A DNA stretch of 64,000 nucleotides from Escherichia phage FL15: the sequence record PP400778; one strand, given 5' to 3'. Every line of letters starts with the position of its first letter. Position 1 is the stretch's first letter. Both the position numbers and the translations under genes were made by a program. The notes below the pieces were generated by a model that saw nothing but the letters and a program-made list of their open reading frames with translations, made no database searches and had not been told where the DNA came from. Shown in pieces: positions 55,462 to 59,982 of the stretch.

Positions 55462-56931
55462 CTATTCCCCATTACCATTATACTTTCTTTGCTTAGTTAT
55501 CCACACTCTAACCATCTCTACAGATTCACCGTCAGACGGATCAAGAGTTTTTCCTTTTTTCTTCATGCGGTACTTAAATCCGTTAAATCTTGCATTCTCT
55601 TGCTCGTTAAAGTCGAACATCTTTTTAAATGATTTTCGCCCTTTACGCTCACCACATTCTAGCGGAATCATTCGGTCTGTTATTACATTGGCATTAGGTA
55701 GAAACGTTTTTAGATAATCCACCAACGCCCAATCAGGAACATATAGATTAACATTCTCCTTGCTCTCGTTGTCTCTCAGGTTACAACGCAAACATAATTG
55801 AAATGCTGGTTCCAGATAATCAGACACATGACGCGCTTTCAAAAACTCGTTTGTCGGGAGATCACAACTATTAGCAAGACCTTTTAAAATATCAATCTCC
55901 CATCGTTGAGGGTTAAAGCTGAACATCACAGCAACATTTTTATGATGAATGTAAGAGTTAAGACCATAAGATCCGTAAGGTATCCGCTCACCAATACCAT
56001 TTGTACACGCTTCACGGTCCCGATTCACGGTATAAATGAAGTCATCGCCACATTCATTTTTAACCATATCAACAAGACGTTCAAAGGTATTGTTTGTTTC
56101 TGACTGGTGACGCGACCATCGTTCAGAGTCCGTCATAAGGATGATATTAACTCTATCTGTATTTTTATACTCTTTGAAATATAGTCTGGATTCTAGCGCA
56201 CTCGGAACAAAATCGCAATTTGCATAGTATCGTAGATACTTCCCACTATATGTATCAAAGAGATTTGCACATGCTATCGTAACCTTTTTAAAGTCTCCCC
56301 ACGTACCGTGTTTGTTATCGTTCAAGAAAACAATTTTCGACCCATTCTTCCGGTGTCCTTCGTTATGTTTTACCATAACGTTGATTTTCTTCTCTAATAA
56401 CGCCTCATAAAGCCCTCTAAGAGAAGAATCGATCATATCAGTACCATCCTTTGCACTTTCTATCTTTTCTTTGATAGCGGCCTTCTCAGAGTCTTTTAGA
56501 ACTAAGTTCTGTAGGCATTCCGATTCGTCGGCGATTGGTTCGCAATGCTTCGTGATAAGTTCAAGATTAGACTTAAACGGATACTCATTAAATTCAACCA
56601 GTTGAGGAACTTCATCAATGTAAAGAGCATATTCACCAAAAATTTTTGAACGTTCCATATTAGATAACGCTGTATGTGTAATGAATATCACATCAGCACC
56701 GTCTTTAACTGATTGCATTATCGACGCTTGCACTGTCTTAAGGCTTCTTAGTCGTGTGCTATCAATCAAGACAGCACGACCACCCATTCTTTTAAACTTA
56801 TTGTAAGATTGTTCACTTAAAACACGAGATGGCGAAGCAATAACCGCTTTTTCTTTTGTCTCTAGGACGTGGGAAAGTATAGCATCAGTTTTCCCCGCCG
56901 CTGGCAATGCGATTAATGTTTCAATCTTCAT
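55462..56931 (-). CDS. P-loop NTPase of unknown function (489 aa)
   Basis: N-terminal Walker A-like LPAAGKT and Walker B-like ALYIDEV; large Cys/Trp/Tyr-rich C-terminal region without recognisable motifs; sits where T4 has alpha-gt. Confidence 0.6.
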   Translation of the reverse strand: MKIETLIALPAAGKTDAILSHVLETKEKAVIASPSRVLSEQSYNKFKRMGGRAVLIDSTRLRSLKTVQASIMQSVKDGADVIFITHTALSNMERSKIFGEYALYIDEVPQLVEFNEYPFKSNLELITKHCEPIADESECLQNLVLKDSEKAAIKEKIESAKDGTDMIDSSLRGLYEALLEKKINVMVKHNEGHRKNGSKIVFLNDNKHGTWGDFKKVTIACANLFDTYSGKYLRYYANCDFVPSALESRLYFKEYKNTDRVNIILMTDSERWSRHQSETNNTFERLVDMVKNECGDDFIYTVNRDREACTNGIGERIPYGSYGLNSYIHHKNVAVMFSFNPQRWEIDILKGLANSCDLPTNEFLKARHVSDYLEPAFQLCLRCNLRDNESKENVNLYVPDWALVDYLKTFLPNANVITDRMIPLECGERKGRKSFKKMFDFNEQENARFNGFKYRMKKKGKTLDPSDGESVEMVRVWITKQRKYNGNGE

Positions 56932-57218
56932 TAGAAACCCTTACGTCGTGCTTTCTGGCATTTCTTGATCATTTTATCAGAAATTTCTCGCTTAGGTGCA
57001 ATCTCTTTCACACCGAAAGCACTAATGCCAAATTCAGAGAGAATATATTCAACCAACAATTCACGCACACGAGCTTTACCGATATTCACGCCGTTATTTT
57101 TCAGATATGTCTGGCCTTCGACTTGCATCAGATCTAAATCTGCGTCGGTAATATTGATTTCTTCCATGCGCCCAAATCGAGAATAAACCATGTGTGCGAT
57201 TGCATTGTGTACTAACAT
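56931..57218 (-). CDS. hypothetical protein
   Basis: ORF; start MLVHNAIAH with GAGGA SD; stop overlaps the NTPase start. Confidence 0.5.
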   Translation of the reverse strand: MLVHNAIAHMVYSRFGRMEEINITDADLDLMQVEGQTYLKNNGVNIGKARVRELLVEYILSEFGISAFGVKEIAPKREISDKMIKKCQKARRKGF

Positions 57219-57240
57219 AATATATTCCTCACTCAAGAAT

Positions 57241-57399
57241 TACTTAATGATACTTACTTTACCAGATCCATGACAATGAGCGCAACACCCATCACCACGC
57301 AATCCTGTTCCGTTACAGTGTTTACACTTCTTCAACGGTAAAGCCATTATAGCAAATAAAGCAATAATGAACACCGAAACTAAATTCTCAATAATCATA
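57241..57399 (-). CDS. 52-aa membrane-anchored mini-protein with two CxxCxGxG (DnaJ-type) zinc-finger motifs
   Basis: Below track cutoff; MIIENLVSVFIIALFAIMALPLKKCKHCNGTGLRGDGCCAHCHGSGKVSIIK; GAGGG SD; overlaps the nrdH 3' end. Confidence 0.4.
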
Positions 57400-57657
57400 A
57401 ATCGCCCTCAGTTCTTTATAGCCTCCAATGTGCTCGTTGTCAATGAATATCTGGGGGTATACAAACCGGAGGCTCTTTGAGTTTAGCCTCCCCGCCAGTT
57501 CTTCAATCATATCACGGTCGGGAATAATGTCAACCCCGACCTGCTTGAATACTGGTTTAAGTGTATACGGAATACCCAGATCATCCAGTAGCTTCATTGC
57601 ACTAATACAACCATAACAATGATAAGCCTCTTTCGGTATACCGTATATCTCGATCAT
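57388..57657 (-). CDS. nrdH: NrdH-like glutaredoxin
   Basis: 89 aa; thioredoxin-fold pattern with CYGC redox motif near the N-terminus; T4 nrdH position. Confidence 0.8.
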   Translation of the reverse strand: MIEIYGIPKEAYHCYGCISAMKLLDDLGIPYTLKPVFKQVGVDIIPDRDMIEELAGRLNSKSLRFVYPQIFIDNEHIGGYKELRAIYDY

Positions 57658-58138
57658 TTCTCAGCCTTTAATCTTTCTAGTTCTTCTTCCAGTTCCTTAA
57701 TGCGCTTCTCGCGTTCAATATCACGTTGGATCTTAGTGGCGAATACTCGTTTAAACTGATTATAGTCATCAATTTTAAATACTTCCTCTTCACCGTATCG
57801 ACGTACAGAAACTTCGTAGTTGTTGAAAAATTGTTCCAACATTGCATCAGTGGTCAGTTCTGCCGATACCACTTTAAAATGACGTTCTTCTGATTGCAAA
57901 AACCAGTTGTGCGCGTATTCCCGTACATCATCAACATTGCGGCAGGTGTATACCGTGCCATCAATTTCAATCGCAGAAACATAATCAACATCCGATGCAT
58001 GGTGATCAAATGCGATAACTTTAAATGGACGGTCGCCTATAAACTCTGCTATTGCATCATTTACAACGCTAAAGTTTGCAAAATCTTCTCTCGTTTTCTT
58101 ATCTTTCCACTGATAGGTCACGCCAGCAACAAACATAT
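57654..58138 (-). CDS. member of tandem paralog family (WxD N-domain + coiled-coil tail)
   Basis: Start MFVAGVTYQWKDKK (GAGGA SD); N-domain aligns with neighbours (TYxW+D ... DRPF ... IEIDG ... +FF.EV); Glu/Lys-rich C-terminus. Confidence 0.6.
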
Positions 58139-58962
58139 TACCATCCTCGCTCTTTACCAATCAAAAATTCAACTTCACGACGTTTAATGTCTTCTTGAAG
58201 GTCTTTAATCTTCTGTCGGTCTTGCATGATTTCATCCATCTTGTCAAGTGCCGCAATGAAATCATCGAAACGTTCAAAGGTTTTACCTTCATTTGCTTCG
58301 CCAAATTTAACCATTGTCAGGCCGTAACGACTACTAAACAGACGTTTCAACTGTCCAACGATTTTAGAATCAGTGGTTATAACTTCCAATTCTTCTACTT
58401 CACGAAAGAATTTTCTATCAGAATCAATAAACCAGCTAGTTCCTTTATGGTCTCTATCTTCGGTTGCGCTCATTAGAGTATGGTCTTTACCATCAATTTC
58501 AATTACATCAATTTGCCCACATGGACTAACATTTTTAACAGTAAAAGGTCTATAATTTATTGCTCGTGCAATAACATAATTAAGGTTAGATACGTTTTCA
58601 GCATAATGACAGAAGTCGGTCATAGCATTCGCATCTTTCCAAGTATAAGTTTTACCAACTTCCCATTTCTGGGGAACTTCTTCAACTTCACGAAAGAATT
58701 TTCTATCGAATGGACTAAAGAAATATGTTGCAGTCCAAATGTCTTTTCCTGTAGCAGTTTTCGCCGTATGATAAACACCGTCTAGCTCTATTGCATCAAT
58801 CCAACCGTTACTCTCGATCTCGATGATGGTAAATGGCTTGTCACCAATAGCTGCACTGATATCGCTGTTAAGTGGAGAAAGAACACCTTCTCCGTTAGTA
58901 ATAAACTCAGTTTTAGCGTTTTCATCTCTCCAAGTGTAAGTTTTACCAATTTCCCATTTCAT
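58138..58962 (-). CDS. member of tandem paralog family carrying two N-domain copies
   Basis: 274 aa; MKWEIGKTYTWRD...DRKFFREVEE repeated as KWEVGKTYTWKD...DRKFFREVEE, then a helical tail. Confidence 0.65.
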   Translation of the reverse strand: MKWEIGKTYTWRDENAKTEFITNGEGVLSPLNSDISAAIGDKPFTIIEIESNGWIDAIELDGVYHTAKTATGKDIWTATYFFSPFDRKFFREVEEVPQKWEVGKTYTWKDANAMTDFCHYAENVSNLNYVIARAINYRPFTVKNVSPCGQIDVIEIDGKDHTLMSATEDRDHKGTSWFIDSDRKFFREVEELEVITTDSKIVGQLKRLFSSRYGLTMVKFGEANEGKTFERFDDFIAALDKMDEIMQDRQKIKDLQEDIKRREVEFLIGKERGW

Positions 58963-58974
58963 AATATATTCCCC

Positions 58975-59440
58975 TTAACCGATTTTATCAAGTTCGTTTA
59001 ATGCTTTCTCAGCTTCCTGTATAGCTTGCACTCTTTCCGGCATTTTGTCAAGAAAATCTTTCAACTCTTCAAAACTGGAGATATGACGCAAGGCGTTAGC
59101 ACCGATAGCCGCATGTGATTTGCATTCAAAGCGGATTTTATAATTATCCATCGCCAATTTGAGAAGATCAATTAATTTAGATTCTTCTGGAATAATAATT
59201 TCTTCAAATCTGCTACGGTCATGATCCAGAAACCAACAAGATAGACCTACATCGGTTGAACTCATATAAGTTCCATCATGAAGATAAACAGACCGCACGT
59301 ATCCTTTTTTTCGCATCAACCGACGCAACTTTAAACGGTAATCGCAGATATTTCAAATAATCAACATCATACCATTTAAAAAATTGGTTTGCATCTTTTA
59401 CATCTTTCCACGCATAGGTCTTACCAGCTTCCCATTTCAT
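58975..59440 (-). pseudogene. member of tandem paralog family interrupted by a frameshift at an A7 run
   Basis: N-domain start MKWEAGKTYAWKD (ATG 59440) is in a different frame from the rest (58975-59328); frames join at the A7 run (plus T7 59305-59311) and would be continuous with one fewer A. Confidence 0.55.
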
Positions 59441-59444
59441 AATA

Positions 59445-59972
59445 TCATCTCTCATTTTTGATACGTGATTCTAATTGGATCATACGGTCGCGCGTTTGTT
59501 TGTATTCTCGGATAGCACCGATCCGGCTAGGCATACCATCCAGTACGCTCTTAATACCTTCTAGGGTAGTAATTTTGGCAATGCTATTATGTAACCCCAT
59601 CTTATCGATCAACTGAATGTCGTAGGCTTCCATAAGCAGACCCAGGCGTTCTAAAGTTAGGTCTTCTTCTTTTTCTTCCGAATCTGGAATCTTAGGTTCA
59701 ATAGCAACTTCGGTAAAGAAACGACGCTCACCCGACCAAAACCACACACCGGAACAGCCAATAGGGGATTCTTTTAACGTCATAGAGTCGAAATTACTAC
59801 CAATAATAGTAATTTCTCTAACATCACCATCATCGTCAAGGTCTTCTACCCTAAACGGGCGACCAGCCAACAAGTCAACAATACATCTGTTAATAGACGA
59901 CGAAAATTTAGTAAGTTCGGCTTTCGACGCTTCGCATTCAATCTTGTAAGTTTTACCAACTTCCCATTCCAT
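59445..59972 (-). CDS. member of tandem paralog family
   Basis: Start MEWEVGKTYK with GAGGTG SD; same N-domain and helical C-terminal tail. Confidence 0.65.
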   Translation of the reverse strand: MEWEVGKTYKIECEASKAELTKFSSSINRCIVDLLAGRPFRVEDLDDDGDVREITIIGSNFDSMTLKESPIGCSGVWFWSGERRFFTEVAIEPKIPDSEEKEEDLTLERLGLLMEAYDIQLIDKMGLHNSIAKITTLEGIKSVLDGMPSRIGAIREYKQTRDRMIQLESRIKNER

Positions 59973-59982
59973 AATAATCACC

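Follow-up and report, generated by a model that had tools for sequence, protein, structure and literature searches.

A conserved phage miniprotein with a predicted membrane helix and a putative zinc knuckle, encoded downstream of nrdH in Escherichia phage FL15

We analyzed a stretch of 64,000 nucleotides from Escherichia phage FL15 (sequence record PP400778), hereafter called the window, and focused on a small minus-strand gene between nrdH and a gp55.2-like gene. It encodes a miniprotein of 52 amino acids, MIIENLVSVFIIALFAIMALPLKKCKHCNGTGLRGDGCCAHCHGSGKVSIIK, in which a single predicted transmembrane helix is followed by two CxxCxGxG motifs. This open reading frame (ORF) is almost certainly a real gene, and its product is likely to carry a zinc knuckle. 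With regard to function, we tentatively read it, by analogy with characterised proteins, as an early accessory protein whose membrane-tethered zinc-knuckle module would bind protein and act on a host inner-membrane-associated target. The gene and its parts are located as follows:

57240..57398, minus strand: coding sequence (CDS) of the miniprotein, 52 amino acids, stop codon included; a 159-nucleotide frame in the ORF listing, a CDS in public Krischvirus records, and a match to phrog_3931 (E=4.3e-10)
57405..57409, minus strand: Shine-Dalgarno-like GAGGG, 6 nucleotides 5' of the miniprotein ATG and within the 3' coding sequence of nrdH (direct reading of the sequence)
57388..57398, minus strand: 11 nucleotides, ATGATTATTGA, shared by the end of nrdH (stop region) and the start of the miniprotein; an overlap of 8-11 nucleotides is kept in five syntenic loci
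57333..57386, minus strand: predicted single transmembrane helix, residues ~5-22, NLVSVFIIALFAIMALPL (hydropathy and AlphaFold2 model)
57303..57326, minus strand: first CxxCxGxG motif, CKHCNGTG, residues 25-32; C25, C28, G30 and G32 invariant in 18 members
57285-57287, minus strand: fifth cysteine, C38, directly before the second motif (CC-x2-C; sequence and alignment)
57261..57284, minus strand: second CxxCxGxG motif, CAHCHGSG, residues 39-46; C39, C42, G44 and G46 invariant in 18 members

The ATG at 57398-57396 is the earliest possible start, with an in-frame stop only three codons upstream, and the sequence GAGGGC(A/G)ATTTATG that surrounds it is likewise present in loci L006 and L007. An overlap of the frame with the 3' end of nrdH had been proposed in a first-pass annotation of the window; it does exist, and a length of 8-11 nucleotides is kept in L006, L010, L012, L015 and L016. 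The coordinates given there (57241-57399) were one base off, and the strand had not been stated. On the plus strand, the locus holds no noteworthy ORF, the longest comprising 37 amino acids.

The hydrophobic segment reaches a Kyte-Doolittle maximum of 2.49 over 19 residues, with a 15-residue core of 3.03. Its hydrophobicity is kept in all 18 family members despite sequence divergence, and an indel of three codons is tolerated. A signal peptide or lipoprotein was ruled out by direct reading of the sequence, which has neither a basic n-region nor a lipobox. Behind the helix, the two motifs are separated by six residues (CKHCNGTG-x6-CAHCHGSG), resulting in the cysteine spacing C-x2-C-x10-C-x2-C, and the protein ends six residues past the second motif; the soluble part comprises 28 residues. 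The additional cysteine C38 is kept in Krischvirus- and Felix-type members, displaced by two positions in the members from Erwinia phages (C-V-C) and missing from the rest; it may serve as an alternative ligand or be sensitive to redox state. When the 64-kb window was scanned in six frames for intact CxxCxGxG motifs, only these two were returned, plus one interrupted by a stop, against an expectation of 0.165 per mononucleotide shuffle. The motif pair is therefore not a product of chance.

In the 18-member alignment A4, which extends down to 26% identity, the cysteines and glycines of the two motifs (C25, C28, G30, G32, C39, C42, G44 and G46) are the only invariant columns. The first-pass annotation had named conservation of the cysteines in relatives as a check, and C25, C28, C39 and C42 pass it throughout. 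Among the six syntenic genes, codons vary synonymously at six of these eight positions. For the unsaturated comparisons with the window gene, the ratio of nonsynonymous to synonymous divergence per site (dN/dS; Nei-Gojobori) is 0.17-0.41; the corresponding ratio of uncorrected proportions (pN/pS) is 0.07-0.47 in most pairs for the zinc-finger half and 0.3-1.3 for the helix. Judged from these alignments, protein-level selection falls exactly on the motif residues. The earlier description of a 52-codon frame with a hydrophobic helix and two CxxCxGxG motifs thus concerns a genuine and conserved coding gene.

As a next point, we consider the occurrence of the gene in public records. When an 801-nucleotide stretch centred on the gene region was used as query, 58 phage records matched with 95-100% identity. 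Without exception, they are T4-like phages of the Krischvirus type that infect E. coli and Shigella, among them W115, ECD7, GEC-3S, JSE, Phi1 and RB49, and the window itself is Krischvirus DNA of the RB49/ECD7/W115 kind. In every one of these flank-matching records (58/58) the miniprotein is intact at an identity of at least 95% (33 at 99% or more, 25 at 95-99%). The frame had been described as unannotated, which was true of the first-pass track only: it has been part of public annotation since the RB49 genome record AY343333 and is listed as W115_25 ('putative membrane protein'), ECD7_00048 ('hypothetical protein') and RB49 UniProt Q7Y3T0 ('Uncharacterized protein'). The ORF is consequently not a discovery, since the family is already catalogued in GenBank, UniProt and phrog_3931, but it is uncharacterised. 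Literature searches on RB49/Krischvirus expression, phage DnaJ-like zinc fingers, EMB2737/FtsHi and Tam37 yielded nothing usable about it.

More diverged relatives were recovered by an exhaustive profile search combined with contig look-ups. Word-indexed searches reached close relatives only, with 3 matches for the single sequence, 10 for the four-sequence alignment A1 and 25 for the 18-sequence alignment A4. The matches of the exhaustive search include numerous full-length DnaJ proteins as well as some 15 clusters of miniproteins in which a transmembrane helix is combined with a zinc finger. Its mid-sized matches were checked for plant FIP-like proteins, but are generic multi-repeat CxxCxGxG proteins and uninformative. 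Five metagenomic orthologues are syntenic with the window gene (P0003 in locus L006, P0012 in L010, P0017 in L012, P0062 in L015 and P0077 in L016). All five lie between an overlapping nrdH and a DUF7570 gene, with identities to the window protein from 87% down to 43% in alignment A4 (82-43% by BLAST).

Outside the Krischvirus-type phages, homologues of 49-60 amino acids with the same layout occur in Felixounavirus, in Kolesnikvirus (Erwinia phages), in Yersinia phage vB_YenM_P778 and in Pectobacterium phage Arno162. The window protein matches phrog_3931 with 40.5 bits, residues 7-48 aligning to profile positions 15-56 of 59, and it is 42% identical to Felix O1 ORF131 (NP_945023, 'hypothetical membrane protein'; BLASTP E=1e-7 within the window database). 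The Kolesnikvirus homologues are auto-annotated as 'dnaJ chaperone protein'. In Felixounavirus and Kolesnikvirus, the gene follows nadV and the hypothetical ORF130 and stands directly upstream of rIIA-rIIB, while in Arno162 it comes after nadV, where the record ends. No redoxin adjoins the homologues in the Felixounavirus, Kolesnikvirus or Arno162 records. ORF130 (or its Erwinia counterpart) was considered as a redoxin or as the partner in a conserved pair and rejected, as it has no Pfam match and no BLAST match in the window. The miniprotein is the only element common to both contexts and represents a single-gene unit in two unrelated groups of Enterobacterales myoviruses.

Two observations concern the wider family. 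In Erwinia phage Panisse (L005 2170-2631), the Kolesnikvirus block with the miniprotein includes, two genes upstream, a gene for an RNA chaperone of the ProQ/FinO family (Pfam ProQ, E=3.3e-18). Besides that, the wider family is heterogeneous, since the bacterial relatives P0098 and P0107, with their basic N-termini, look like exported proteins.

The neighbourhood of the gene in the window comprises the following further features:

57388..57657, minus strand: NrdH-like glutaredoxin of 89 amino acids with a CYGC active site, the upstream neighbour (Pfam Glutaredoxin, E=6.9e-5; phrog_22; public label nrdH/glutaredoxin)
56931..57218, minus strand: gp55.2-like protein (DUF7570) of 95 amino acids, the downstream neighbour (Pfam DUF7570, E=1.4e-28; public note gp55.2; start at 57218 according to public annotation)
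55462..56931, minus strand: helicase-like protein of 489 amino acids beyond gp55.2 (phrog_2467, E=1.8e-174; W115 label 'putative helicase')
57654..58160, 58138..58962, 59276..59455, 59445..59981 and perhaps 58975..59328, minus strand: tandem paralogue-like ORFs with a shared opening motif

The gene order is nrdG, four or five hypothetical genes, nrdH, the miniprotein, the gp55.2-like gene (DUF7570), the helicase-like gene and gp55. In T4, the slot from nrdH to 55.2 was searched for a counterpart; it holds 55.6, 55.5, 55.4 and 55.3, with no CxxC motifs there or in 55.8. The miniprotein gene is therefore no conserved T4 core gene and has no general link to nrdH.

Compared with locus L012, the miniprotein is only 50% identical (dS 0.92, dN 0.375), while NrdH reaches 94% (dN 0.029) and gp55.2 99% (dN 0.009). 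The dN of the miniprotein is 13-40 times that of these two neighbours. Sliding DNA identity shows the same picture, with flanks at 92-100% and a dip to 62-78% over the miniprotein gene. As dS and dN are both raised, recombinational exchange of old alleles is just as likely an explanation as accelerated substitution. Judged by such sequence comparisons, the nrdH region clearly is a recombinational mosaic.

Several other observations were made in this region. The helicase-like gene is ~61-71% identical to its counterpart in L010 and ~99% identical to that in L012; the N-terminus of its 489-aa product shows a marginal DEAD/DEAH helicase match (27.3 bits, cut-off 26), and no gene of comparable size is present between 55 and 55.2 in T4. 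Upstream of nrdH, the consecutive minus-strand ORFs between 57654 and 59981 share the opening M-x-WE-x-GKTY-x-W-K/R-D and look like tandem paralogues, some of them internally duplicated; the product of 57654..58160 has its match in phrog_5347, with weaker similarity to the PHROGs labelled 'goF mRNA metabolism modulator'. Two further islands of divergence relative to L010 and L012, at 58430-58630 and 59730-59930, have an identity of 36-59% within flanks of 90-100% and fall inside the paralogous ORFs 58138..58962 and 59445..59981.

We further looked into the relationship of the cysteine motifs to known zinc modules. All single-sequence Pfam matches of the window protein are sub-threshold. The best by E-value is the cysteine-rich domain of GRXCR1/2 (GRXCR1-2_C, PF23733; 17.6 bits, E=0.0036), which covers 12 residues only and lies below its 26-bit threshold, and zf-AtTam37 scores 17.8 bits. 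For DnaJ_CXXCXGXG (PF00684), the window protein obtains 14.6 bits (E=0.041) and Felix O1 ORF131 15.6 bits, both below the gathering threshold of 32.7 bits; for DnaJ model TIGR02349, 18.8 bits stand against a cut-off of 377. With regard to NCBIfam, DnaJ models are matched by 18/18 members and the model for RtpA (anti-TRAP) by 17/18 (best E=2.1e-6), while the window protein (12.8 bits, E=0.097) and also the best family member stay below the NF058604 RtpA cut-off of 65 bits. No J domain is found among the Pfam or NCBIfam matches, and there are two CXXCXGXG repeats rather than four. The first-pass term 'DnaJ-type' consequently holds as a description of the motif and fails as a statement of family membership.

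A profile built from five family sequences matches the cysteine-rich domain (CRD) of E. coli DnaJ (1EXK, an NMR structure) with E=1.1e-8 and aligns separately to its motifs 1+2 and 3+4, while the match to anti-TRAP (3LCZ) is weak and spans 24 ungapped residues. In the AlphaFold2 model, a single helix (residues 3-19) is accompanied by a small hairpin region; the zinc-finger block has a per-residue confidence (pLDDT) of ~82. Its top PDB matches by Foldseek are the anti-TRAP proteins of B. licheniformis and B. subtilis (3LD0, 2BX9), with a root-mean-square deviation (rmsd) of 0.6-0.7 A over 23-24 residues. Anti-TRAP is a protein of 53 residues whose two CXXCXGXG motifs bind one zinc, which is needed for oligomerisation into trimers and dodecamers; it is a stoichiometric, zinc-dependent protein inhibitor and antagonist of TRAP (PMC2896485). 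The same pair of motifs binds one zinc in cysimiditide peptides (bioRxiv 10.1101/2024.10.02.616296). A precursor of a cysimiditide-type ribosomally synthesised and post-translationally modified peptide was considered for the miniprotein and rejected, since no methyltransferase or modification enzyme is found among the annotated neighbours in either context and the protein has a transmembrane helix.

Topology was assessed from the distribution of charges. In 13 of the 18 members, the N-terminal tail is without K/R and has exactly one acidic residue, and the net charge behind the helix is +4 to +6 in the window protein, P0003 and P0012. Under the positive-inside rule, this charge bias suggests an N-out/C-in topology, with the knuckle, which begins only 2-3 residues past the helix, on the cytoplasmic face. 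Zinc-thiolate chemistry would be compatible with such a position on the reducing, cytoplasmic side.

Upstream of the gene, one candidate for its expression stands out:

57506..57533, minus strand: sigma-70-like candidate promoter TTGACA-16-TG-n-TATGAT inside nrdH, ~108 nucleotides upstream of the miniprotein ATG (consensus scan, 11/12 positions plus extended -10)

Promoter-like hexamers are kept at the same position in L015 (TTGACA-17-TATAAT, a perfect match) and L016 (TTGACT-16-TACAAT), even though NrdH there is only 55-66% identical. This suggests that the site within nrdH is an early promoter for the miniprotein and the gp55.2-like gene. A MotA-box-like sequence, ATTGCTTTA, at 57365 inside the miniprotein ORF was considered as well. 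T4 middle promoters need ~12 nucleotides between the MotA box and the -10 element, and the site was rejected because TATAAT follows only 5 nucleotides later.

Altogether, we tentatively prefer the following reading, which we would rank as possible rather than probable. The gene would be an accessory gene of an RB49-like T4-type phage and probably early, transcribed either in the leftward nrd-55 unit or from the sigma-70-type promoter inside nrdH. Its product would be a bitopic inner-membrane miniprotein with the acidic N-tail MIIEN in the periplasm, one transmembrane helix and a basic C-terminal tail of 28 residues sitting directly on the cytoplasmic face. In this tail, the two motifs would fold back together and hold one Zn(II) by C25, C28, C39 and C42, an arrangement known from anti-TRAP and from both zinc centres of the DnaJ CRD. 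The protein, having no J domain or catalytic features, may then act on a host protein in or near the inner membrane, either as inhibitor or as adaptor. A candidate target is FtsH, by analogy with FIP of plants, a J-less DnaJ-like zinc-finger protein of the thylakoid that binds the membrane AAA protease FtsH5 (PMC5915565); a membrane-bound defence or abortive-infection effector is the alternative. The zinc scaffold would be fixed while surface residues and helix evolve quickly, and such a fixed scaffold with a variable surface, together with single-gene mobility, would fit a host-interaction factor. Anti-TRAP, a stoichiometric inhibitor built on this very module (PMC2896485), is one precedent; another, for a small early phage membrane protein that inhibits host machinery, is PhiNM1 Gp11 (PMC11237401). 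Zinc binding, topology, early expression and the role as binder or inhibitor are what we infer here, and the identity of the target is speculative.

Several points weigh against this reading. The assignment of function rests on analogy, and our literature search found no experiment or paper on any member of the family. The scores for the DnaJ and RtpA models are all far below the curated cut-offs. The AlphaFold2 model is moderately confident (mean pLDDT 71, pTM 0.36, from a five-sequence alignment), and the Foldseek matches to anti-TRAP, with E-values of 0.22 and 1.8, are not significant and extend over only ~24 residues. With respect to topology, the charge behind the helix is near neutral or negative in several Felix-type members; the orientation is not certain because the bias is clear only in the closest Krischvirus-type members. 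No pair of sequences has an overall dN/dS above 1, and the rapid change may stem from weak constraint on a small scaffold instead of an arms race. In addition, the Felix-type copies P0007 (Escherichia phage phiWec177), P0009 and P0010 are frameshifted at about the first motif, which results in loss of the second motif and products of 63 amino acids (alignment A2). These copies may be sequencing errors or natural knock-outs; in the latter case, the gene may be dispensable or of marginal effect. Finally, a PADLOC scan revealed no credible link to a defence system, the only match being PDC-M01B (E=0.007, 5 members).

The strongest competing explanation, which we nevertheless consider rather unlikely, places the activity in the membrane part. 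Here, the helix would do the work and the knuckle would drive homo-oligomerisation at the inner leaflet. The outcome would be superinfection exclusion, a block of injection, or an effect on membrane integrity or lysis timing, in the manner of the T4 Imm/Sp/rII class, without specific inhibition of a host protein. The zinc requirement of anti-TRAP oligomerisation (PMC2896485) speaks for such a role, as does the proximity of the knuckle to the helix, which must place it on the membrane surface. Small early membrane proteins with host-directed effects are, moreover, common in phages, PhiNM1 Gp11 being an example (PMC11237401). In Felix O1-like and Erwinia phages, the gene immediately precedes rIIA-rIIB, annotated there as a protector of membrane integrity; this points in the same direction, but applies to only one of the two genomic contexts. 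The poor conservation of the helix speaks against a machine built on specific helix-helix contacts, and scans of Pfam, PHROG, PADLOC and NCBIfam showed no similarity to a known exclusion or holin family.

The first-pass annotation had also suggested a redox cofactor. A role as redox partner of the upstream NrdH is again less likely, and we regard it as improbable. In this scenario, the cysteine-rich tail would form a thiol-disulfide relay or a zinc-redox switch and tether the chemistry of NrdH to the membrane, for example in support of ribonucleotide reductase. Disulfide-isomerase activity has been reported for plant DnaJ-like zinc-finger proteins, and in GRXCR1/2 a cysteine-rich domain is fused to a glutaredoxin. 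Translational coupling would fit the start/stop overlap with nrdH, which is found in all six of the Krischvirus-type lineages examined; however, such overlaps are the rule in this packed cluster, and nrdH itself overlaps its own upstream ORF. The promoter-like site inside nrdH would also permit expression independently of nrdH. The best single-sequence Pfam match, GRXCR1-2_C, is a domain that follows a glutaredoxin domain, but this match is short and sub-threshold, as stated above. The extra cysteine C38 in Krischvirus- and Felix-type members and the presence of nrdG and nrdD a few kb upstream would suit a redox function. Against it, adjacency to nrdH is confined to the Krischvirus lineage, the homologues in Felixounavirus, Kolesnikvirus and the Pectobacterium phage having no redoxin beside them, and T4 possesses nrdH, nrdG and nrdD but has the unrelated 55.3-55.6 in the slot. 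The excess of dN over NrdH and gp55.2 is likewise unlike what is seen in a tightly co-adapted partner.

Very unlikely, in our view, is a reading along the lines of the chaperone role or interference with host DnaJ clients proposed in the first-pass annotation. The miniprotein would then be a holdase similar to DnaJ or, at the membrane, a decoy that draws clients or DnaK away from host DnaJ. The profile similarity to the DnaJ cysteine-rich domain favours it, and plant DnaJ-like zinc-finger proteins without a J domain usually act in a chaperone-like manner that is independent of Hsp70 (PMC5915565). However, only two of the four repeats are present, J domain, G/F region and C-terminal substrate-binding domains are lacking, the soluble part is very small, and the scores are far under the DnaJ cut-offs. 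The 'dnaJ chaperone protein' label in some records of Erwinia phages might be taken as support, but represents an automatic transfer of a motif-level match, and anti-TRAP shows that the module need not mean a chaperone (PMC2896485). Lastly, a chance ORF or remnant between nrdH and gp55.2, as its very short length and the frameshifted Felix-type copies might suggest, is effectively refuted by the conservation evidence, that is, invariant motif residues with synonymous changes, dN/dS below 1, intact copies in all Krischvirus records and conservation across two unrelated phage groups, to which the motif count and a good Shine-Dalgarno sequence add.

Returning to the membrane-tethered binding module that we prefer, its more specific form would be a phage-borne, membrane-tethered counterpart of anti-TRAP and FIP. 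A Zn(Cys)4 knuckle on the cytoplasmic face would modulate a host membrane machine, either FtsH or an anchored defence effector, and its surface would track host or defence diversity. We consider this version unlikely. If it were true, the family would be the first bacterial or viral example of such an inhibitor architecture, and the exchange of a single 160-bp gene between T4-like and Felix O1-like Enterobacterales phages would be explained. If a host inner-membrane protein were bound, the miniprotein would represent a minimal genetically encoded inhibitor and a new, non-chaperone reuse of the CXXCXGXG knuckle; if there were no phenotype, it would be one more conserved phage miniprotein.

Small membrane proteins of phages are under-studied, and several of those characterised are potent and specific inhibitors of host machinery. 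The present family is unusually tractable, with 52 residues, eight invariant scaffold residues, anti-TRAP as a clear structural template and natural alleles for interface mapping, and its carriers include therapeutic-type E. coli and Salmonella phages in wide use (RB49-like, Felix O1-like). The miniprotein is a solid candidate for experiments, yet unsurprising to a phage specialist. The zinc module is of a known kind, and its membrane-tethered two-motif layout is known in plants (FIP), while the literature searches made here found no characterised bacterial or phage example of that layout.

The comparison with known systems illustrates how far each likeness reaches. The zinc finger of the lambda antiterminator Q and other phage CxxC...CxxC proteins give weak matches at the level of the motif (phrog_6060, E=0.017; PDB 7UBJ and 4MO1, E ~0.6-1). 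Q is a soluble binder of DNA and RNA polymerase with 150-200 residues, and outside the cysteine pairs there is no significant similarity. Members of phrog_3931 such as Felix O1 ORF131 are true homologues with identical architecture and the same invariant residues; their context differs, and membership is mechanistically uninformative. The cysteine-rich domain of DnaJ/Hsp40 (PF00684, 1EXK) has the same CXXCXGXG motif with invariant cysteines and glycines, but is made of four repeats with two interleaved zinc centres and is accompanied by a J domain, a G/F region and C-terminal domains, whereas the miniprotein consists of two repeats and a membrane helix.

In layout, Arabidopsis FIP without its transit peptide comes close: one hydrophobic anchor is followed by a C4 zinc finger with two CXXCXGXG motifs on the stromal side, the equivalent of the cytoplasmic side, and a J domain is lacking. 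The likeness is one of layout only; FIP is eukaryotic, plastid-targeted, longer and restricted to mosses and higher plants (PMC5915565). The closest structural analogue is anti-TRAP of Bacillus (RtpA; PDB 2BX9, 3LD0/3LCZ), with 53 residues compared to 52 and identical cysteine spacing, borne out by gap-free alignments over 24 residues with 3LCZ and 3LD0. Anti-TRAP, however, is soluble and has a C-terminal helix that builds the trimer, whereas the phage miniprotein has an N-terminal transmembrane helix, the only helix in its model. TRAP, the target of anti-TRAP, is not known from E. coli, and common ancestry is not claimed beyond the motif. The most fitting description of the module is thus half a DnaJ CRD, or a single Zn(Cys)4 knuckle of the anti-TRAP kind, and the phage miniprotein belongs to neither curated family.

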